This document shows, one piece after another, positions 1-33,566 of a stretch of 64,000 bases of DNA. The notes below the pieces were generated by a model. The model was not told the DNA's origin and ran no database searches. It saw only the letters and a program-made list of their open reading frames with translations. The translations under genes were made by a program, and so were the position numbers. Every line of letters begins with the position of its first letter. The first letter of the stretch is position 1. This DNA is from a virus. The stretch covers positions 128,001-192,000 of the IMG/VR virus record IMGVR_UViG_3300045988_175328; one strand, given 5' to 3'.

Positions 1-1443
1 GATAGATTGCGTCGAGAAAAAGAAGAGCAAGATAGATTACATAAGCTAGAAGAAGAACGTCATAAACTTGAAGAAGCTGAACGTAAGCTTGCCGAAGAAC
101 GTCGGCGTCAGGAAGAAGAAGCTGCGGCTCAACGTGCTCGAGAAGAAGCCGAAGCAAGACGAAGACAAGAAGAGGAAGAAGCGAATCGAAGAACAGAAGA
201 AGAACGGAGACGAAAAGAAGAAGAACGTAGAAGAAAAGAGCAGGAAGAAGCTCAGAATCAAAAAGATAGAGAGCTTCGAGAATTAAAAGAGTCTTTAATT
301 AATAAAATAGAAGCAACAAAGGCAGGATTAAAATCTAGAATTAATTCAATACAAGATTTGCCTCAAGCTTTAAAAAATAAATTTAATAAAAGTGTTGATG
401 ATCATTATAATGCAATAATCAATGCAATAAATTCTAAAACTCTCAAAGAAGAACTGTCTCAAATAGGATCTCTTCTTGATGATATTCATACAAATACAGA
501 TACTCCTAAAGAACTCAAAAATAAAACTAATGCTATTCTTGCAGCATTAGGACTTCCTGAAACATTTAAATTTCCAACAAAAGATTCCTTTGGCAGTTAT
601 TATCGAGAAGGAGATCCTGAATATCTTCAAGATGTAAAAAGAATACTTAAAGAGAAATCAAATAAAATATTTGATGAAGCAATTGCTGCATTGAAACAGA
701 ATCCAAATATTAGCATTCAAGATAAAGAAACTTATGAAAGATATTTTAACGATCTAAAAAATAAAATGTCTCAAAGAATAGATAGTGCAAATAATAGACA
801 AGAATTAATTGCTATTAATAATTATCTTGACGCATTAAGAAAGTCTCTTCCTAATATTAAAGAATTTGTGCACCTATTAATAGGCGCAATAGATCTTTTT
901 CAGTTAGGGAACAGAATTCCAGAGATTACTTACGATGAAACTCTTTCTTTAAGTTTTGAACCTAATGAGCTCTATGAAGGTTCTGAGGCTATGACTTTTG
1001 AAAAAGCAAAACAACATTTAAGAGATAAGCTTTATCAATTAAAATCTGGATATACATCTTCTTTGAATGACCATCTTAATATGTACACAGGAATTTCTGT
1101 TACTCTTACTAGCACTAAAGTGCCAGGGGCTATTGCTGATATAGAAAGCTATATAGCGAAAGCGCGGACAAAAGAAGATCTTATTAAATTAGGGCATGTT
1201 ATTAAGATGCCTACTGGTGATAACTTACCTCAAGATTATGTCGATAAAATTAATGAAATTTTAGCGACTATTGGTTTAAAATATAAAATTCCTGATCTTC
1301 TAGAAGTGGAGGGTTTTGAAGAAAAAGTCTCTTTACAATATGAAAATGAGCCTAATATTATTAAGTTCTTTTCTTTTATAAAAAATTATTTAAATCCTAA
1401 CCATTTTAGTCAAGGAAGTTATTTTATTAAAACCCAAAACTAA
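1..1443 (+). CDS. virion structural protein, 5'-truncated at window edge; probable exon 1 of an intron-split gene
   Basis: Frame open from nt 1 (ORF track 7..1443). The first ~95 aa are an E/R/K-only charged helix (EEERRRKEEERRRKEQEE). The rest is paralogous to the C-terminal ~230 aa of 4091..6406. The TAA at 1441 sits at the 5' edge of a group I intron. Confidence 0.6.
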   Translation, partial: DRLRREKEEQDRLHKLEEERHKLEEAERKLAEERRRQEEEAAAQRAREEAEARRRQEEEEANRRTEEERRRKEEERRRKEQEEAQNQKDRELRELKESLINKIEATKAGLKSRINSIQDLPQALKNKFNKSVDDHYNAIINAINSKTLKEELSQIGSLLDDIHTNTDTPKELKNKTNAILAALGLPETFKFPTKDSFGSYYREGDPEYLQDVKRILKEKSNKIFDEAIAALKQNPNISIQDKETYERYFNDLKNKMSQRIDSANNRQELIAINNYLDALRKSLPNIKEFVHLLIGAIDLFQLGNRIPEITYDETLSLSFEPNELYEGSEAMTFEKAKQHLRDKLYQLKSGYTSSLNDHLNMYTGISVTLTSTKVPGAIADIESYIAKARTKEDLIKLGHVIKMPTGDNLPQDYVDKINEILATIGLKYKIPDLLEVEGFEEKVSLQYENEPNIIKFFSFIKNYLNPNHFSQGSYFIKTQN

Positions 1444-2037: not shown

Positions 2038-2376
2038 AGAAACTTTTTTATGGCTCTCTTAGAACCACGTGACTTTAGTCATGTGAAGCTCAGTGATTCA
2101 ATGTTAAGAGATCTTGAATTTTCGATGGAGGAAAGAGCTGCTGCTATAGACAAAGGATTTATTGTTACAAATAAGAGAAAGAAGACAAAGGCAAGAATTG
2201 CTCTTTTAGAAAAGTCCGTTTATCTTAATGGATTAAGTGAAGCTCAAAAAATTGATTATTTTAGAGATAACCCTGAAAGGATAAAGGTTGTTTTTGGAAT
2301 AGCAAATCGTTACTTTGAATCTATCAAGGTTCATACTGTTGAGATTACTCCTCATTTTACAGATAAAGTTAGATAA
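2038..2376 (+). CDS. probable exon 2 of the intron-split structural gene (ORF-track ATG at 2050)
   Basis: It is in the same reading frame as 1..1443. There is no Shine-Dalgarno before ATG 2050, unlike neighbouring genes. The frame is open from 2038, directly after TAG/G2037. Its stop overlaps the next start (TAATG). Confidence 0.45.
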   Translation, partial: RNFFMALLEPRDFSHVKLSDSMLRDLEFSMEERAAAIDKGFIVTNKRKKTKARIALLEKSVYLNGLSEAQKIDYFRDNPERIKVVFGIANRYFESIKVHTVEITPHFTDKVR

Positions 2377-4091: not shown

Positions 4092-6406
4092 TGAAAATAA
4101 AAGAAATTAAAAAAGTATCAGCACGACTATTGGTTAATGGTCGTGCTACTTTAATTCATTCCGAAGCCGATTATGATTTCAACAAACTTCCCGTTGGTTC
4201 TATTTTAATTAATAACGATAACAATAAGATTAAAATAAAGATTGAAGGCAAATCTACTTGGTCAGATATTAAAGAAGAAATGTCGAGTCGATCATACCTG
4301 ACTATTCTAGGGAATCGTATTCTTCAAGAACCATTTCTTGTAACAGATATCGATCTCGAAAAAAATGAAATCACATATTATAATCATCGCGGCGAACGAA
4401 GAATTAAATATATATATACTGATAAGAAATGGAAGTATGCAGTCTTTGAATTAGATAAAGCTACATATACTCTAAAGAAAAATGCTATCGTCGCCCATAT
4501 TAATAATATCGTAGAATGTAATACTGAGAACTATAAGCTTCAGGAAATAACACCTCGACGAATTGGTATTGATATTCGTTGGTTAGCTGTTGGCTGCTGG
4601 GTTGACATTGCATATTACGATATCTTTAGAATGCGTTCTGTTGGCCGAGAAATCTTTGCAGGTAGTACTAGCGATAAGATAAAGAATAATTCAATGGGGC
4701 TTGTCTATGACAATTTAGACAAAGAAGGATATCCTAGATTACATGTTGAAGTCATTGAAGATCCTTCTGATCCTAATCAAGTTATCCTAAGAGTTACTTC
4801 TGAGAATGGATCAACTATTACTGTAAGCGATGTCCAGCATCTACTCGATAAAACAAATCGAGTTAAAGTAATTGAAAATAACGGCAAGGTTGATTTCATT
4901 TATCGACGTGTTTCCCAAGAATATACTACGATAATTACTTCTACTAAGCCAGGCAAAATAAAAGAAATGTTCACCGTTAAAATACCTGAGCGCGGCGAAG
5001 TAAAAATATTTAAGTTTATTTATATGTTTGGCAAATCGCAATTCAAAAAAACTCGTAAAATAATTCCTAAAAAAATTATCACGCCAGAACCAGAACTTAT
5101 CTTGGGTACTGGCATTATTGAAAGAGAAAAGACGATCGTTACTTCTTCGGATACTATCAATGTAAAACCTGCAGAACCTCAATGTGAAGTAGAGCTTATG
5201 GGTTATAATTATAAAGTTCATCTGTTAGGTAAACTTTATTATGACTCAGATTCAGGAGAGCCAGAAGAAGGATCTCATCCTATCTGGGGTTCAATATATC
5301 CTCCTGCAGGTGATTTATTTTTTAGAATTGGAGAATGTGATGGCTGGAGAATTGAATCTTCTCCTGTAAATGGATTTTATTTAGACAATAATTCAAGTAG
5401 TGGAATAGTTCGTTATTGGGGAGATGATCAATTAGATGCTCAACGTTTCTCTTGGGCAGAAAATGAAAAAATGAAAGTAAACGTAATTCCACTCAAAATT
5501 TACCAGCATGATACGTTAAGATATTCTCTTGTTTTCTATTATATTATTTTAAGAAATAAAGATAATTTGGATAATTCCAAATTTAAATACAGAATAACAA
5601 AAGAAGAATTAAGACAAGCCGGTATTGAAGAAGAATTAATAAATAAAATATATGAAAGGATATTATCTTATTCAGAATCTGAAGAAGAAATGCGGCGCAG
5701 AGAACAAGAAGAAGCTGATCGTAGACAAAGAGAGCAAGAATTATCTAATATTAGAAATTTAATTCTTCCGATCTTAAAACAAATGAAAGAGAAATTTCCT
5801 CAAAAAATAGATCAACTTGAAGGCGTATCTTCTACAGAAAAAGAAAAGTTAAAACAAAAAATTGACGATTACTATAATAAAATTATTGCCGGCGTAAATT
5901 CTACTAACGATATTTCTAAATTAAATTCTATAAAAGAATTAGTAAAAGATGTAAATCCTTTTCATGATACAGTTGAGTTTACTACTATTAAAACAAATAA
6001 ATTATTAGAGATTCTTGGATTATCTGGATCTATTGAAATACCTGACGGAAATTCAGATAATAATTCTGAGTCAAATAATGATGTTGATATTAGAGAAAGA
6101 AAAATAAAAATTGAGGATATATTCAATAAGATTATAGAAAATATAAGATACAATAATTATATTCTCAATAATAATAAAAAAATCTATATTGATCAGATTA
6201 CAGGACTAAAGAACCAAGTTTTAGAAAGATACAATGGTCCTACTCAAAGATTAGAAAAATTTTTGCTTTATACTCATGTTTTAAATTTAGGTGTTTTGTA
6301 TGAAGAAGAAAATTTAAATCTATCTGTAAGAAAAATGAATGCAATGATTGATAAATTTAATTTCTCTGGACATATTTCTTCTATTGAATATATAAACAGT
6401 TTATAG
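4091..6406 (+). CDS. hypothetical virion protein with C-terminal ER/K helix and a module paralogous to 1..1443
   Basis: 771-aa ORF. C-terminal EEEMRRREQEEADRRQREQE is followed by ...KIDDYYNKIIAGVNSTNDISKLNSIKELVKD...LEILGLSGSIEIP, which parallels ...SVDDHYNAIINAINSKTLKEELSQIGSLLDD...LAALGLPETFKFP in the first ORF. Confidence 0.6.
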   Translation: MKIKEIKKVSARLLVNGRATLIHSEADYDFNKLPVGSILINNDNNKIKIKIEGKSTWSDIKEEMSSRSYLTILGNRILQEPFLVTDIDLEKNEITYYNHRGERRIKYIYTDKKWKYAVFELDKATYTLKKNAIVAHINNIVECNTENYKLQEITPRRIGIDIRWLAVGCWVDIAYYDIFRMRSVGREIFAGSTSDKIKNNSMGLVYDNLDKEGYPRLHVEVIEDPSDPNQVILRVTSENGSTITVSDVQHLLDKTNRVKVIENNGKVDFIYRRVSQEYTTIITSTKPGKIKEMFTVKIPERGEVKIFKFIYMFGKSQFKKTRKIIPKKIITPEPELILGTGIIEREKTIVTSSDTINVKPAEPQCEVELMGYNYKVHLLGKLYYDSDSGEPEEGSHPIWGSIYPPAGDLFFRIGECDGWRIESSPVNGFYLDNNSSSGIVRYWGDDQLDAQRFSWAENEKMKVNVIPLKIYQHDTLRYSLVFYYIILRNKDNLDNSKFKYRITKEELRQAGIEEELINKIYERILSYSESEEEMRRREQEEADRRQREQELSNIRNLILPILKQMKEKFPQKIDQLEGVSSTEKEKLKQKIDDYYNKIIAGVNSTNDISKLNSIKELVKDVNPFHDTVEFTTIKTNKLLEILGLSGSIEIPDGNSDNNSESNNDVDIRERKIKIEDIFNKIIENIRYNNYILNNNKKIYIDQITGLKNQVLERYNGPTQRLEKFLLYTHVLNLGVLYEEENLNLSVRKMNAMIDKFNFSGHISSIEYINSL

Positions 6407-26344: not shown

Positions 26345-26809
26345 ATGCTGTACCTAATAGTCGCTAAATCTAAGAATAATGTAATTGGGAAAGACAATGA
26401 AATACCTTGGAAATCAAAAGAAGATATGACTTGGTTTCGACTGGTCACTGAAGGCCATCCTGTATTTATGGGATATAATACGTTTTTATCGATTGGCCAT
26501 TCTTTACCGAAACGTACGAATTATTTATTAAAGACTCCAGAGACAAAAGAGCAGCGAGAAATCCAAATCTATATCGAGGATCAAATCGAAGAACTTATTA
26601 AAGATCCCGGCAAAATTATTTTTTGTATTGGTGGCGCTAGTACATATGAAAAATATATCAATCGCGCCTCCAAACTTTTTGTTACCGAGATACAAGAAGA
26701 AGTAACTGGTGATACATTCTTCCCAGAGATTCCAGAGAATTTTGTCGAAAAGATATCGATGAGAACACAAGAGGAAGGATTGAAGATTACAATATATGAA
26801 TCTAAGTAA
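26345..26809 (+). CDS. folA: dihydrofolate reductase
   Basis: ACGGAGG SD before ATG 26345. MLYLIVAKSKNNVIGKDNEIPWKSKEDMTWFRLVTEGHPVFMGYNTFLSIGHSLPKRTNYLL is a classic DHFR N-terminal signature (IG..n.lPW...D...F...T....viMGr.Tf.Si...LP.R.n.vl). Confidence 0.85.
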   Translation: MLYLIVAKSKNNVIGKDNEIPWKSKEDMTWFRLVTEGHPVFMGYNTFLSIGHSLPKRTNYLLKTPETKEQREIQIYIEDQIEELIKDPGKIIFCIGGASTYEKYINRASKLFVTEIQEEVTGDTFFPEIPENFVEKISMRTQEEGLKITIYESK

Positions 26810-28424
26810 AATACAAGATAATAGAATTTTTAAAGAAATTGTTTCTTTAAAAGAGATTACTGAAGAAAATATTAAACAAATTTTTATTGATCAGTCTTGG
26901 ATATACAAATTACCTGAGATACCAGGCATAAAGAAGGCTGCTAAAGAATTTATAAAACATTACAAAGCGGGCCGCGATATTTATGTTTATGCCGACTATG
27001 ATGTAGATGGAATGACATCTGGAACGATCATGAAGAAATTTCTTGAAAATATTTGTGAAAAAAGTAGTGTCTATTTTCCAGAACGAACTGATGGTTATGG
27101 ACTTTCAAAAGTATTTATCGAAGACTTATCGTTTCGATATTCAGAAAATATGCCATTGGTTATCACTGTCGATAATGGGATTACAAAAGTTGAAGAAGCA
27201 AATCTTTGTAAACAATATAAGATTCCATTAATCATTACAGACCATCATTTGCCGCAAGATGAATTGCCTAATGCTACTCTCTTAGATCCTCATTTGTATG
27301 AAGGAGACCATTGGTCTAAAGCATTGTGCGGAGCTGGAGTCGCTTACTTCTTCTGCCGAGAAATAGAAAATCAACTTAACTTAAATCATAAGATTACCGA
27401 CAGACTTCTTTATCTAGTTGCTATTGGAACTATTTCCGATATCATGAAGCAGACTATCGTAAATCAAGCAATTGTAAGAAAAGGGTTTGAACAAATTAAT
27501 CAACGGAATATTCCAGCTACATTAATTGAATTACTTAAACTTAATTCTATATACAATATCACTTCAGAACATATCCTTTGGGAGATCGCTCCGCGTCTTA
27601 ATGCATGTAGCCGAATGGGAAACATCAAACAAAGTTTGACACTCTTTAATTATAACAAAGACCCGTTAGATGAAATCCTTAAGATCGACACATTAAATAA
27701 AGAACGTAAAGCATTAACTAAAGAATATGAAGAAAAAGTTTTACAAACCGTAATTAATAATGGAGCAATCGCTGTTTCAATTCTCGACACAATCCCAATC
27801 GGTATTGTCGGCATTCTTGCTGGAAAATTACAAGACCATACTGGATTGCCTTCGTTTGTCGGCACAATACACAATGCTGTATATCACGGATCAGCACGTA
27901 GTAATTACATATCTTTAAAATATTTACTTGAAGGAAATGCTTCAGTCATTGGGTTTGGGGGACATGCTTCGGCATGCGGGTTCAATATCGATGCAGCTCA
28001 ATTAGATTTATTCTTTGAAGAAACTCTTAATAGAATTACTAAATTTATTGAGGAATATGGAGATCAATCTCAAGAACAAGTTGAATATAATGAATTAATT
28101 ACAATTGCTCTTAAAGATATTTCAAAAGAAACATATGAAGCATTTTATTCTTTTTCATACGATCCAATCTATTTTACAAAACCAATTCTTTGTATTAAAG
28201 ATTTAGAGGTTGTTGCTATTAGCCACAGTAAAAATAATTACGAAAATGTGAAATACTCTTTATCTGATGGCGTTTTACAGAAAGATATTTGGGGTTGGAA
28301 TGCGAATCGGTTTGGAATTAATCGTGGTGATTATGTCACATTATATGGTGATATATCTGAAGATTTTATGAAACCGGGTCGATACACTTTAAATATTAAA
28401 TACATAGAAAGAAAGGTTGTTTAA
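26796..28424 (+). CDS. recJ: RecJ-like DHH-family single-strand DNA exonuclease
   Basis: DHH motifs IYVYADYDVDGMTSG, ITVDNGI and IITDHHLP; GGHASACGF in the DHHA1-like part. Confidence 0.8.
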   Translation: MNLSKIQDNRIFKEIVSLKEITEENIKQIFIDQSWIYKLPEIPGIKKAAKEFIKHYKAGRDIYVYADYDVDGMTSGTIMKKFLENICEKSSVYFPERTDGYGLSKVFIEDLSFRYSENMPLVITVDNGITKVEEANLCKQYKIPLIITDHHLPQDELPNATLLDPHLYEGDHWSKALCGAGVAYFFCREIENQLNLNHKITDRLLYLVAIGTISDIMKQTIVNQAIVRKGFEQINQRNIPATLIELLKLNSIYNITSEHILWEIAPRLNACSRMGNIKQSLTLFNYNKDPLDEILKIDTLNKERKALTKEYEEKVLQTVINNGAIAVSILDTIPIGIVGILAGKLQDHTGLPSFVGTIHNAVYHGSARSNYISLKYLLEGNASVIGFGGHASACGFNIDAAQLDLFFEETLNRITKFIEEYGDQSQEQVEYNELITIALKDISKETYEAFYSFSYDPIYFTKPILCIKDLEVVAISHSKNNYENVKYSLSDGVLQKDIWGWNANRFGINRGDYVTLYGDISEDFMKPGRYTLNIKYIERKVV

Positions 28425-28430
28425 TATTCA

Positions 28431-31400
28431 ATGTTCACACACTTGCATGTGCATACAGAATATAGCTTACTCGATGGCTATTGTCATATTGAAAAGTTAG
28501 TCGCAAGAGCTAAAGAGCTCGGCATGACTCATCTTGCAATTACTGATCATAACCATCTTGGCGGCATTATTAAGTTCCAAGATGTTTGTTTAAAAAACAA
28601 CATAACTCCTATATTAGGATATGAAGCCTACCAAACTTGGAATATGAGAGAGCTTGCTAAACCATTAGAAGATCGGCGAAAAGCTGCTCTACAAAAAGCT
28701 CTCGATGAAGGTGCTTTAACGGAAGATGAAGTTAATTTTTTTCTGAAGAAGAAAGTTAAAGTTAAAAAAACTAAGACTGAGATTAAAAATATTTCAGATA
28801 AATATATGTATGACTCGAAGCAATATCATTTAATATTGCTTGCTTATAATCAAACAGGGCTTAATAATTTAATTAAGTTACAGTCTGAATCCGCTAGAGA
28901 TTGTACATACAATGGCCGCTTTTTACTTGACTTTAATTTGTTAAAAAAATATAACGAAGGAATTATTTGCACTACTGCTTGCGTTGGCAGCATGCCTGCT
29001 CAATTAGTCTGGAAAGATAATTATAAAATTGCCGAAGCCGTTATCTTAAAATACAAAGAAATCTTTGGCGATCGATTCTATCTTGAAGTCCAAGACAATC
29101 AAGTCGAGATTCAGAATAAAGTTAATAACTTCTATATCGAGATGAGCGAAAAACATGGTATTGAATTAGTCGCTACTTCTGATGTCCATTATGTTCTTAA
29201 GGAAGATCATTATGATCATGATGTGTTAGTATCGATCGGGACTGGTTCTAAGATAACTGACCCTACACGTATGCGATACGATAATAACTTTTGGCTCAAA
29301 TCCGAAGAAGAAATGGTTAAAGGTTTTGAAATGCTTGTTCGCATATTTGGTGGGAAAATGGATCCGTATCTTAAGGCTATCGAAAATACAAATAAGATTG
29401 CTTCGATGGTCGGTTCTTTTTCGATTGGCAGTAAAAAACCATTAATGCCGAAGGTTCCAGGAATAGCTGGTGATACAAATCGTATTCTTCGAGACAAAGC
29501 CTTCCGTGGACTGTATGAGCTTGCTAAAACTCGTGATAATATTCGTGAAAATATTCATGAGTATGAAAAGCGATTAAGTTATGAGTTAAATATAATTAAC
29601 TATAAAGGCTTTGCCGATTATATGTTAATTGTTGAAGAATTTATTCGTTGGTCTGCCGAGAATGGTATCATGACAGGATCTGGTCGTGGATGCTCAACAG
29701 CCGGCACTTCTATTCTCTTAAATAACGGTGATATTAAGCCCATAGAGAACGTTAAAATTGGAGATAAGGTATTTACACATACAGGTATCGTTAAGCCCGT
29801 CAAAAACGTTTTTAACTATGATATCGAGGAAGACCTATATCGTATTAAAGCTGGCTCTAACGATGAGATGACATATACTGGCGACCATAAATTTTTTGTT
29901 GCAACAAAAGATAACAGTGTTCCACACTGGAAACCTATTTCTGAATTAAATGTTGGCGATAGCTTGTTAATGCCTAAGCTTAAAATTAAAGTTGATGATA
30001 CTCAAGTTATGACGTATCTTACTGAGCTTCATTCGGATTTTAATGAACGACGTGGTTTAACATATCCGACTAAAAAGATTAGAGCTAGTCATAAAGCATA
30101 TCCTTCTAAATTTTACTGGTCAAAAGATTTCATTAAGCTTTTAGGATATATTGTTTCTTCAGGATACATCCGGAATATTCGTTCCGAAGGAAAGCAGAAT
30201 TATGAAATAGCTGTATCATTTCTATCAGAAGATTCTGTTCAGGCTCAAGAGTATATAAGTCTTTGTAAAGCAGTATTTGATGAATCTCCTGTCGCAAGAA
30301 AATCAGACAATAAAAAAAGAATTGTTCTTTCAATTCAAAGTAAAGTATTAGCTGTATTTATTTCTTCGTTGATATATAATAGCGATTCTGAATTCGATCG
30401 ATTCGACAAACGAATTCCTAAACGAATTTTCACAATGAGTGATGATTTTAAAAAAGCTTTTTTGCAGCCTTTTTTTACTGGTATTAAAGGATTTCCGTTT
30501 GTAGTCGATGGTAAAACTAAAATACAAATTAGTCTCACGAATAAAAATCTGGCGCATCAATTAGTTACTTTACTTAACTTAATGGGCATCCATTCTAGAA
30601 TTGTTAGTCGGCTTTATGATACTAAATTAAATTTGTATGAATACAAAGTATCGATTGCTAAAGAATCGTATCCCGAGTTTTATGCTTTAATGGGCGTCTA
30701 TTTAACTTATAAAGAGGGATATAAACCATCAAATTATAAAACATATGCAGATTATTATGAAGTTACCATTCGAGAGTTAACAAAGTTACCTAATGTAAAA
30801 ACAAAAGTATACGATATCGAAGTCGAAAAAGACCATTCTTATATCGGAAACTTAAGTGCTGTTCATAACAGTGCCAGCGGAAGTTTAGTACTCCTCTGTA
30901 TCGGAGCAACTAAGAATATCGACCCAATAGAACATGGCTTATTGTTCGGGCGTTTCTTAACAATCGATAGAACCGGTCTTCCCGATATAGATTCAGATAT
31001 AAGTTACACTGGCCGAGAAAAAGTAATCCATCATTTAAAAGAAACTTACGGCACAAGCGCTGTTTCCCATATCGGAACTTATTCAGAGATGGGTGTAAAG
31101 TCTGGGATTAAAGATGTGTGTCGGGTACTTGGAATCGATTTCTTAGAATCGAATATGATCTCGAAAGAGATCGATTTAATTGAAGCTGTTCCGCCGCAAC
31201 CTAAGTTTAAACACTTTGATGCACTAAAGAATAGCACTAACCCAACAGAACAATCAATGTGGAGACGCTTCGATAATCTCGAAAAAAAATATCCAGAAGT
31301 ATTCAGGCTCGCTCGAAACTTCGAAGGATTAAAACGAGGTTTTGGAGTTCATGCTAGTGGCATCTTGGTTATGCCATGTGAAGTAACAGATTATTTCCCG

Positions 31401-31925
31401 ACACGTGTCGATGACTTTGGTGTCAGCATTTGTTTGTTTACTGGGGTAGAAGTCGAAGCAAAGAATGCTGTTAAGCTTGATGTGCTAGGATTAAAAACCT
31501 TAAGTATCATAGAAGATACGCTAAAGAATTTAAATAAAACTATCGACTGGCTTTATGAAGTTGCTAATATTGAAGATCATAACATATATGAGATGATTGC
31601 CAATTCGGAAACAGATTGTGTATTCCAATTAGAATCAGATATGTTTAAAGATATGATGAAATATTTGCAGCCAACAGACTTTCAAGATATCGTCGCCGCT
31701 ACTTCATTAGGTAGACCAGGACCATTAAGCCAAGGCATGGATAAAGATTATTCGCATCGGAAACATGGTCGAGAAGAAATAAGTTTTATTCTGCCGCGGA
31801 TTGAAAATATATTAGATAGAACCTACGGCGTCATCTGCTATCAGGAACAGCTAATGGCCATATCAAAGCAAGTTAGTGGCTTTGATGATAATCAGGCAGA
31901 TAGTATCTCGAGAAAAATTATTGCT
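28431..31925 (+). CDS. dnaE: DNA polymerase III alpha subunit (DnaE), exon 1, includes an intein
   Basis: PHP motif FTHLHVHTEYSLLDG. GSGRG|(intein)|SASGSLVLLCIGATKNIDP matches GPGRGSAAGSLV..L.IT.IDP. Catalytic PDIDSDIS. The exon ends ...SRKIIA (cf. LRRAMGKKK), with a T before the TAATAATAGG intron start. Confidence 0.9.
29691..30869 (+). mobile_element. intein (393 aa) in DnaE with a degenerate LAGLIDADG-type endonuclease domain
   Basis: It starts at Cys (CSTAGTSILLNNGDIKPIENVKIGDKV). Block B is MTYTGDHKFFV. It ends ...VYDIEVEKDHSYIGNLSAVHN followed by +1 Ser. Removing it restores the conserved GRG-SASGSLV motif. The LAGLIDADG-like LLGYIVSSGY lacks the acidic residue. Confidence 0.85.
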
Positions 31926-32208
31926 TAATAATAGGCCTCCTATAAAGTAATTTATAGTGAGCATCGTGTGAACTCCAAAATGGAGGTGTTTGATTTAGAT
32001 CAAGCTAACGGTAAAAACCTAAGTCTATTTAGATATGGAAATACCGTGCCAAGCCTCATGTTGAGGAAGGTGTAACGACTATGGATGATGAGTGTAATCC
32101 AGTAGAGGAACCAAGGTGAAAGACCAAATTCGAAGCGCACGACAACCATTTTGGTTGAAGAGATAGTCTACTCCCCTAAGAAATATCGGGAAACCGAGGG
32201 TATCAAGG
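31926..32208 (+). mobile_element. group I intron 1 in dnaE (283 nt, ORF-less)
   Basis: It starts TAATAATAGG after exon T31925. R-like GGTGTAACGACTATGG and S-like GAAGAGATAGTCT are present. It ends at G32208. Splicing gives SRKIIA|KKKQELMPML, matching the conserved ...GKKK.EEM of DnaE. Confidence 0.8.
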
Positions 32209-32427
32209 AAAAAGAAGCAAGAACTAATGCCTATGCTTATTCGTTGCCATATCTATGGCAAGAAAAACATAGAAGGCCCTGAAGGGTGGGAGAACGATAG
32301 CAAAGCTCCATGGTATGATCCAAAAGGTAAGTACGGACCTGAAATAAAAGGAGCTCTAGCTAACGGATATACCGAGGAAGAGATGATAAATTATTTTGAA
32401 TATATCGATGGATTCAGCAGTTACGCT
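32209..32427 (+). CDS. dnaE: DnaE exon 2 (73 codons)
   Basis: In frame with exon 1 after splicing. It ends ...IDGFSSYA with a T before the second TAATAATAGG. Together with exon 3 it rebuilds YA|FNQSHAAAY (cf. GYGFNKSHSAAY). Confidence 0.8.
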
Positions 32428-32771
32428 TAATAATAGGGCGCATTAATAAAGAAATTTATTAATGAAAATGGGATAAACCTTTTTAGGGTGTCGATTTAAT
32501 TGTCGGCTAACGGTAGAAGTTAAATAAGCAAACGACGAATACGCTTCCTAAGAGATGCTACGGTCCACATTGTGGATAGCAGCCAATACCGTGCCAATCT
32601 AAAATCTTAGCCTTTAGTGATTTTAGCAGGTGTAGAGACTAACAGGTGAGTAGCTAAAACAATAAGCCTGACATGAACATCCCACATCTTAAATAGAGAT
32701 GAAGAGATAGTCCGATACTCATGAATAACAGTAATGAGAGTATGAGATAAAGAGCTCATATGTAACGAATG
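32428..32771 (+). mobile_element. group I intron 2 in dnaE (344 nt, ORF-less)
   Basis: It has the same 5' start TAATAATAGG. It shares GCTAACGGTA, AATACCGTGCCAA, an R element AGGTGTAGAGACTAACA and an S element GAAGAGATAGTCC with intron 1. It ends at G32771. Confidence 0.8.
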
Positions 32772-33566
32772 TTTAATCAGTCACATGCTGCCGCATATTC
32801 ATATAATACATTTCTTACAGCATGGTTAAAGTATTATTATCCGGCCGAATTCTTTGCGGCTCATCTTTCTATGCAAGATACAAAAGATCTTTATAAATAT
32901 TTACCGATCGTAAGGAAAGCTGGTATCGAAATAAAATGTCCAGATATTAATAAATCTGGAGAGAACTTTTTGCCACAAGGTAAAAGTATTTTATTCGGCT
33001 TAGGCAGTGTCAATACAATTGGAGGGAAGGCGTTAAATGCTATTATGACGAACCGCCCATTCTCTTCGATTGAAGATCTTGATAGTAAGGTATCTGGCCG
33101 TGAATTAAATAAAAGAAGTATTAATTATTTAATTCAGGCTGGTGCTTTTGATTTTGAAGATGCAAACCGAAAGGTAGTTGCTAATAAATTTGCTGATCTT
33201 CGTAAAGATACTAAAATATATCTTGAAGAACCTATGACCGAAAAAGAATACATGGAGATGGAAAGTAACAGTATTGGATTCCCTGTAACATATCTTCCAG
33301 AATGGTATCATCTTGAACTAGGAGACACTCCTTTCTTCAAGATAAAAGTAGCTGCTGTTAATGAACGAAATGATCGTTCTGGTAATTTAATGGCGTTTTT
33401 AGAACTTGATGTTGGAGGCGGCGTACTAATCGATGCCGTAGCATTTAGTTCTATATACACTACTAACTTAAGTTACCTTCGAAAAGATAGCGAGATATTT
33501 GTATCCGGCAAAAAAGATAGTGAATCTAAATTTGTTCTTAAAAAAATAAGTCTTACTGGTGAGTAA
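32772..33566 (+). CDS. dnaE: DnaE exon 3 (C-terminal part)
   Basis: FNQSHAAAYSYNTFLTAWLKYYYPAEFFAA matches FNKSHSAAYA...tyqtaWLKahYPaEFmAA. A terminator follows. Confidence 0.85.
   Translation, partial: FNQSHAAAYSYNTFLTAWLKYYYPAEFFAAHLSMQDTKDLYKYLPIVRKAGIEIKCPDINKSGENFLPQGKSILFGLGSVNTIGGKALNAIMTNRPFSSIEDLDSKVSGRELNKRSINYLIQAGAFDFEDANRKVVANKFADLRKDTKIYLEEPMTEKEYMEMESNSIGFPVTYLPEWYHLELGDTPFFKIKVAAVNERNDRSGNLMAFLELDVGGGVLIDAVAFSSIYTTNLSYLRKDSEIFVSGKKDSESKFVLKKISLTGE

Follow-up and report, generated by a model that had tools for sequence, protein, structure and literature searches.

The locus considered here raises the question of how a phage could express its replicative DNA polymerase from a gene that is broken into three open reading frames (ORFs). 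It lies at positions 28431-33566 (5136 nucleotides, nt) of the window, i.e., the 64,000-nt stretch of DNA covering positions 128,001 to 192,000 of the IMG/VR record IMGVR_UViG_3300045988_175328, which comes from an uncultured phage of ~227 kb. We consider it highly probable that the locus is one gene for the alpha subunit of DNA polymerase III (Pol III alpha, DnaE-type), interrupted by three selfish elements that would remove themselves, two group I introns from the RNA and one intein from the protein. The anatomy, the exact boundaries, the conserved RNA structure, the presence/absence polymorphism and the purifying selection are the observations reported below, and from these we infer splicing itself.

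The three ORFs lie where the original prediction placed them, at 28431..31928 (ORF1, 1165 amino acids, aa), 32227..32430 (ORF2, 67 aa) and 32769..33566 (ORF3, 265 aa), all on the plus strand, as are all features of the locus. ORF1 matches Pfam PHP (E 1.5e-42), DNA_pol3_alpha (E 1.1e-58) and positions 1-143 of the 166 of the finger domain, with Intein_splicing, Hom_end_hint and LAGLIDADG_3 nested at aa 421-813, while ORF3 matches HHH_6. Removal of 31926-32208 and 32428-32771 at the RNA level and of 29691-30869 at the protein level had been proposed to restore the polymerase, and joining and alignment bear this out: 28431-29690, 30870-31925, 32209-32427 and 32772-33563 together encode a colinear DnaE of 1109 aa (126.4 kDa), and the precursor with the introns removed and the intein still in place has 1502 aa (171 kDa). 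The N-extein (28431..29690; Pfam PHP, DNA_pol3_alpha) comprises the PHP domain and the start of the palm, is colinear with homologues and ends in MTGSGRG. The extein continues in the 3' part of exon 1 (30870..31925; Pfam DNA_pol3_alpha, finger 1-143/166; homologue alignment A1), which runs from SASGSLV through PDIDSD and YQEQL to SRKIIA. Exon 2 (32209..32427, 73 codons, KKKQELMPMLIRCHIYGKKN...YIDGFSSYA) aligns without gaps to uninterrupted homologues, and exon 3 (32772..33566, stop at 33564-33566; Pfam HHH_6) begins with FNQSHAAAY and encodes the C-terminal part with HhH and OB-fold. The PHP, palm, fingers and HhH of a family C polymerase follow in order, and the catalytic aspartates of PDIDSD are intact. 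All the expected hallmark motifs, GSGRG/SASGSLV, PDIDSD, SRKIIA/KKKQELM and SSYA/FNQSHAAAY (slashes mark the junctions), are present, and the three elements do sit within the most conserved of them, as had been claimed.

The spliced product matches the structures of Taq and E. coli DnaE (E 1e-131 to 1e-145). The alignment with Thermus aquaticus DnaE 2hpi (E 7.6e-145) is continuous over both RNA junctions, with 'adsisrkiiaKKKQELM' opposite 'ADLLRRA-MGKKRVEEM' at intron 1 and 'fssyaFNQSHAAAYS' opposite 'FANYGFNKSHAAAYS' at intron 2. Many uninterrupted homologues of 1114-1115 aa and ~60% identity are encoded on contigs of 220-235 kb, and the alignment with them is gap-free at all three junctions (RKIIA/KKKQELMPML against RKITAKKKASLMPLM, or GSGRG/SASGS against GPGRGSAAGS). 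The closest relative, L001, is a 36.8-kb ENA contig with 88-89% nucleotide identity in the flanking and exon blocks. It is devoid of intron 2, reading ...AGTTACGCC/TTTAACCAG... where the window reads ...AGTTACGCT (32428-32771) TTTAATCAG..., and because its allele is contiguous, intron 2 corresponds exactly to 32428-32771. With the gap-free homologue alignment for intron 1 and the intein, all three proposed boundaries proved exact. Intron 1 is kept in L001 (4804-5088, 38.6 bits against the Rfam model RF00028), which has an extra group I intron of 292 nt (4439-4730, 31.6 bits) following YQEQL, 24 codons upstream of intron 1, where the window is continuous.

The identification of the two gaps as group I introns is upheld by three features: a U.G pair marks the 5' splice site, the last nucleotide is G, and both share a core supported by covariation. 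Both inserts open GCU/UAAUAAUAGG, close with G and have in common the core CUAACGGUA...UACCGUGCCAA...GGUGUA(A/G)(C/A)GACUA...GAAGAGAUAGUC. In both, the 5' exon ends in a U that forms the U.G wobble, the omega G is terminal, removal restores the frame, and a P3/P7 pseudoknot is accompanied by a core of P4-P6, P7.1, P8 and P9. Intron 1 (31926..32208, 283 nt, no ORF) starts with UAAUAAUAG, has three in-frame stops and ends with G32208. Its predicted helices are P1 (31923-31927 with 31932-31936, GCUUA:UAGGC; pairs G31923-C31936, C31924-G31935 and U31925.G31934), P3 (31964-31970 with 32136-32142, UCGUGUG:CGCACGA, from the minimum free energy (MFE) fold and class comparison), P4 (32008-32013 with 32042-32047), P7 (32077-32081 with 32164-32168) and P8 (32143-32148 with 32152-32157, CAACCA:UGGUUG). 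Intron 2 (32428..32771, 344 nt, no ORF) likewise starts with UAAUAAUAG and ends with G32771; it has predicted P1 (32424-32428 with 32436-32440; exon-guide pairs C32424-G32440 through U32427.G32437), P3 (32469-32474 with 32679-32684), P4 (32510-32515 with 32587-32592), a pseudoknotted P7 (32637-32641 with 32708-32712), P8 (32685-32689 with 32697-32701), and P9 and P9.1 (32718-32760). Both introns belong to one td-like (IA2-like) subfamily. For intron 1, a 5' splice after U31926, the P1 register U31926.G chosen by Rfam, was rejected, as no 3' site restores the frame and homologues have no extra residues; the hand-derived P3 candidates ACUC:GAGU, UGGA:UCCA and CCUC:GAGG were superseded by UCGUGUG:CGCACGA directly before P8, based on the MFE fold and the class-wide comparison.

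The structural model of intron 2 (83 pairs, with P7 counted as a pseudoknot) was assessed in an alignment (A2) of five homologous introns, all of them located at this site. A standard pair is formed in 96.6% of cells compared with 33-39% in slid controls, compensatory changes occur in 15 of the 83 pairs compared with at most 4 in slid controls, and none of 500 shuffles matched either the pairing or the compensation value. Even an exon-guide pair of P1 is compensated, from C-G to U-A in L061. The unconstrained MFE structure of intron 2 coincides with the hand-built model in P1, P2, P3, P4, P5, P6/6a, P7.1, P8, P9 and P9.1. P7 (GACUA/UAGUC) and P4 are invariant, their support being that of sequence conservation. 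Between intron 1 and its 93%-identical copy at the same site of L001, all differences are in loops or compensatory.

At the gathering threshold, Rfam reported no introns in the whole window; the curated cut-off of RF00028 is 50 bits, which is an annotation threshold and not a biological criterion. In E-value mode, RF00028 is the only significant Rfam match within the 1.3-kb stretch 31700-33000, with 41.6 bits for the intron 1 region 31917-32190 (E 6.8e-9; 3.4e-7 for the whole window) and 24.6 bits for the intron 2 region 32418-32731 (E 8.6e-4; 0.042 for the whole window). Two extra hairpins between P3 and P4 prevent the model from aligning P3. With the whole of L001 and of another relative, L002, Rfam found nothing, and matches appeared only with short stretches; the gathering-mode misses on long sequences are a filter effect.

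Every splicing block of an intein, as predicted for 29691-30869, is present (393 aa, 45.2 kDa). Blocks A, B, F and G and the residues of a class 1 intein were found: Cys1 at 29691, the TxxH of block B (TGDH, 29877-29894), the His-Asn closing block F/G (VYDIEVEKDHSY...SAVHN, 30807-30869) and Ser+1 at 30870. With Pfam, Intein_splicing reaches 56.4 bits, above its cut-off of 35.8, and LAGLIDADG_3 reaches 22.1 bits, just below its cut-off of 22.5. The intein has no counterpart in ~45 homologues; inteins at the same site are found in P0072, L001, L059 and L061. Its endonuclease domain aligns to PI-PkoII (2cw7) and both LAGLIDADG motifs are recognizable (30138-30167 and 30459-30491), and neither ends in the metal-binding Asp or Glu of such an endonuclease: the acidic residue is replaced in both (by S and by I/K; LLGYIVSSGY vs LLGYYVSEGY and FFTGIKG vs YFIGDGD, window vs PI-PkoII). 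The fold has probably been kept, and because of these replacements the nuclease activity has probably been lost.

Expression of the polymerase would then proceed in two stages. Lying exactly between codons A772/K773 and A845/F846, each intron would be excised by two-step guanosine-initiated transesterification, with the 5' exon ending in GCU, its U contributing the U.G wobble of P1, and the intron ending in G; on unspliced RNA, ribosomes would stop at once, as each intron opens with UAAUAAUAG. The resulting 1502-aa precursor would contain the class 1 intein (Cys1, His-Asn, Ser+1) within GSGRG/SASGS, and the intein would free itself in four steps (acyl shift, transesterification, cyclisation of Asn, another acyl shift), leaving a 126-kDa DnaE and a 45-kDa intein. 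Pairing would also be possible between the guide of intron 2, GGGCG, and the end of exon 1, UGCUU. The common start of the introns and this cross-pairing would fit a spread between the two sites, e.g., by reverse splicing, and the cross-pairing raises the possibility of exon 2 skipping, with 31925 joined to 32772 in frame.

Conceptual splicing gives 1503 codons without an internal stop for both the window and L001. The exteins of the two differ in 253 codons synonymously only and in 15 with an amino acid change (96 and 6 in the N-extein, 28431..29690), compared with 27 and 8 in the intein splicing domain and 47 and 19 in the endonuclease domain. These codon counts indicate strong purifying selection on the spliced frame throughout the exons, the 73-codon exon 2 included, and such selection speaks for removal of the introns and the intein in vivo. 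A decaying pseudogene, or introns and an intein that are inactive, would mean that no functional DnaE is made and the host polymerase is used. Such decay would agree with the lack of an endonuclease gene in either intron, with the lost acidic residues of the intein and with RF00028 scores below the cut-off, and it is nevertheless very unlikely given the excess of synonymous changes, a frame free of stops and frameshifts, intron differences to L001 that preserve the helices, and intein splicing residues that are all intact.

Even less credible is an explanation in which the RNA stays unspliced and three separate polypeptides of 1165, 67 and 265 aa assemble non-covalently as a fractured polymerase. 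Internal ATG codons are indeed available, at 32227 and, a single codon ahead of exon 3, at 32769, and the absence of a Shine-Dalgarno signal at these internal ATGs says little because such signals are weak throughout the genome and genuine genes often have none. The breaks, however, fall within conserved motifs, and the first internal ATG is six codons into exon 2, so that the KKK motif would be lost. Moreover, the spacers have the folds of group I ribozymes, conserved and with covariation, exons 2 and 3 are fused in L001, and ~45 relatives have a single continuous gene. Finally, an assembly artefact, such as a chimeric join or the collapse of repeats among strains that occur together, which a clade polymorphic for insertions could provoke in an assembler, is practically excluded because the 5136 nt are 100% identical on two ENA contigs with different assembly accessions, two partial contigs agree with them (100% and 99.97%), and homologous introns occupy these sites in L001 and, independently, in several IMG/VR contigs.

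Several observations nevertheless count against the proposed splicing of DnaE. Both introns score below the 50-bit cut-off, and the whole-window E-value of intron 2 is weak. P3 is invariant across the five members of the intron 2 family, which leaves it without covariation support within the family. P1 of intron 1 has three exon-guide pairs only, and the alignment with RF00028 favored the frame-breaking register for it. A search with junction-spanning peptides gave five distant matches and no near-identical uninterrupted product, which is evidence neither for nor against spliced transcripts or intron-less alleles. The endonuclease domain of the intein still looks constrained despite its missing acidic residues; its 47 synonymous-only and 19 changing codons do not resemble a freely decaying domain.

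The window does not stand alone in its arrangement, which represents one of the configurations of a system that has six sites and is polymorphic within this phage lineage. A tblastn search with the mature protein was made against 73 related loci (L001-L073, mostly IMG/VR contigs up to 263 kb), and sites were numbered according to the 1109-aa mature protein of the window. The DnaE family has six element sites with zero to three elements per gene, and ~45 of the 73 loci are uninterrupted. The intein at site 420/421 (GRG/S) is shared by the window, L001, L059 and L061. Within PDIDSD, at site 459/460, 14 loci have a second group I subfamily, 283-358 nt long or ~1.2 kb with a LAGLIDADG ORF. Site 701/702 (LG/RPGP) is occupied in eight loci by an insert of ~1.4 kb with a 350-aa ORF, and site 748 (after YQEQL) in four by an element of 292 nt or of ~1.2 kb with a LAGLIDADG ORF. 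A group I intron of 271-285 nt without an ORF interrupts site 772 (RKIIA/KKK) in the window, L001 and L067, and one of 344-359 nt, or ~1.3 kb with an ORF, interrupts site 845/846 (SSYA/FNQSH) in the window, L054, L061, L065 and L068. The window accordingly combines the intein with 772 and 845, and L001 the intein with 748 and 772. Proteins of 1165, 1147 and 1142 aa, whose partners have 265-361 aa, belong to the 90%-identity cluster around the ORF of L001, and this variety indicates that several configurations circulate in the close clade. At site 701, the 350-aa protein encoded by the insert, a candidate intron (L036, L039, L059), gives just a weak match to 'homing endonuclease associated repeat', and its C-terminal ..LAVEYDGPQHF.. 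recalls PD-(D/E)xK nucleases.

LAGLIDADG ORFs are borne by the introns at sites 459, 748 and 845. At site 845, L054, L061 and L065 have the ribozyme of intron 2 together with a 283-296-aa double-motif LAGLIDADG ORF in the P1 loop, and intron 2 of the window is therefore the ORF-less form of a mobile intron. These P1-loop genes lie at 5087-5935 in L054, 5946-6797 in L065 and 7125-8012 in L061. In L054 and L065 the final codons (..GRINGEI*) share bases with the ribozyme's guide sequence and its P2, and in L061 the ORF extends through P2 and the P3 5' strand region into hairpin Y; coding and RNA structure use the same bases there, as the ORFs overlap ribozyme helices. Since the introns of the window have no endonuclease gene and the LAGLIDADG acidic residues of its intein are lost, all three elements are probably immobile passengers or would be mobilisable only in trans.

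The two extra hairpins, X and Y, lie in both introns between the 5' strand of P3 and J3/4-P4, at 31973-32003 and 32477-32505, where canonical group I introns contain nothing but J3/4. Hairpin Y shows compensatory changes in all four of its pairs in the five-intron alignment. A scan of IMG/VR for the core motif yielded at least 120 matching stretches (L074-L193), with 11 distinct full members that show the order P3 5' strand, AAC, hairpin X, GGUGU, hairpin Y, GCUAA and P4, followed on the 3' side by GAAG, the P3 3' strand and P8. Within this class, intron 1 included, P3 occurs in ten different compensating sequences. We found no description of this layout in the literature on hairpins between P3 and P4 of group I introns. 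With well under even confidence, we hypothesize jointly that the introns represent a widespread phage class that is scored under the Rfam cut-off and whose core layout is possibly undescribed, and that DnaE is a six-site homing battleground in which endonuclease-bearing and ORF-less intron forms circulate within a lineage of ~230-kb human-associated phages. The ORF-less copies may be mobilised in trans, or may protect their sites, during co-infection. If this is true, the pattern of occupancy would decide which phage's polymerase allele survives a mixed infection.

These findings have a practical side for annotation. Standard pipelines call the gene an 'intein/homing endonuclease' protein and two orphan fragments, and as the default Rfam search reports no introns in the window, the replicative polymerase is mis-annotated wherever it is present in this form. 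Phages that are ~89% identical and have different intron sets (772 and 845 vs 748 and 772) constitute a natural experiment, and about 70 relatives with six occupied sites, with and without endonuclease genes, offer a compact system for the gain, loss, endonuclease decay and site choice of such elements in an essential gene. The added value lies in the natural intron-plus/intron-minus pair, the six-site polymorphism and the possibly undescribed core layout, and the known picture of how such elements work is unchanged.

Elsewhere in the window, a third and much stronger RF00028 match was detected on the plus strand at 1467-1815 (74.7 bits, E 4.5e-19 in E-value mode over the whole window), in the gap between ORF 7..1443 and ORF 2050..2376; the gathering run over the whole window missed this one too. 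The upstream ORF stops at 1441-1443, before the predicted P1, and it is therefore not obvious which exons flank the ribozyme; they may include one of 5 codons that begins with the ATG at 1462. Directly upstream of DnaE, a RecJ-like DHH/DHHA1 protein is encoded at 26796-28424 (Pfam). Gene order nearby is kept in relatives, with DHFR on L194 and with DnaB_C and DUF1064 on L002, and the neighborhood is a replication module. A megablast search of the locus among GenBank phages gave no match, and the best match of the protein in an isolate, Moorella phage MTATph1, has 36% identity; hence no cultured relative is at hand.

Group I introns and inteins in phage genes for replication and nucleotide metabolism are classical, and DnaE inteins are well known, while our literature search brought up no dnaE gene described as carrying group I introns. 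What is new here is the host gene and the phage lineage; the mechanism is standard. The nearest counterparts of the two introns are the group IA2 introns of T4 td, nrdB and nrdD (sunY), which are likewise small introns in phage DNA-metabolism genes with an in-frame stop immediately after the 5' splice site. The T4 core is near-identical in J6/7-P7 (UAACGACUA) and J8/7-P7' (GAGAUAGUC), has P7.1 and P7.2 before the P3 3' strand, as in the window, and continues with a purine-rich linker before the P3 3' strand and P8, which is of the GAAG type in the window and GAAAC in td. Unlike the T4 introns, those of the window reside in dnaE, have no ORF, score below the Rfam cut-off, contain two covarying hairpins between the P3 5' strand and J3/4-P4, and have a very short P1 with 3-4 exon pairs.

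Several homing elements in one replication or nucleotide-metabolism gene are also found in other phages. The bnrdE/bnrdF genes of the B. subtilis prophage SPbeta contain group I introns and an intein, and the DNA polymerase genes of phages SPO1, Twort and Bastille contain two or three introns. These polymerases belong to family A and the SPbeta inteins are in ribonucleotide reductase, whereas the window has both kinds of element in a family C DnaE. Like PI-PkoII (PDB 2cw7), the intein of the window combines a Hint splicing domain with a LAGLIDADG endonuclease domain of two motifs inserted into it; unlike in PI-PkoII, other residues have taken the place of both acidic ones that bind metal. In the uncultured, human-associated crAss-like and Jug gut phages, inteins, endonuclease genes and short group I introns that have no ORF interrupt many essential genes, including the DNA polymerase, and for Jug phages about half of the predicted introns had their splicing supported by metatranscriptome reads (PMC12880540). 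Those phages form a lineage different from the ~227-kb phage with its DnaE-type polymerase, and DnaE is not mentioned there (PMC12880540). The split DnaE intein of cyanobacteria (Ssp, Npu) has the exteins AEY/CFN (PMC8484483). It occupies the same DnaE motif, Y/(G, C or A)FNxSH, as intron 2 (SSYA/FNQSH), which by alignment is inserted one codon downstream. The cyanobacterial element is a split intein that acts on the protein, whereas intron 2 would act on RNA, and the intein of the window is at another motif (GRG/S). The position of intron 2, one codon away from the split intein, points to convergent targeting of a single polymerase motif by RNA-level and protein-level elements.

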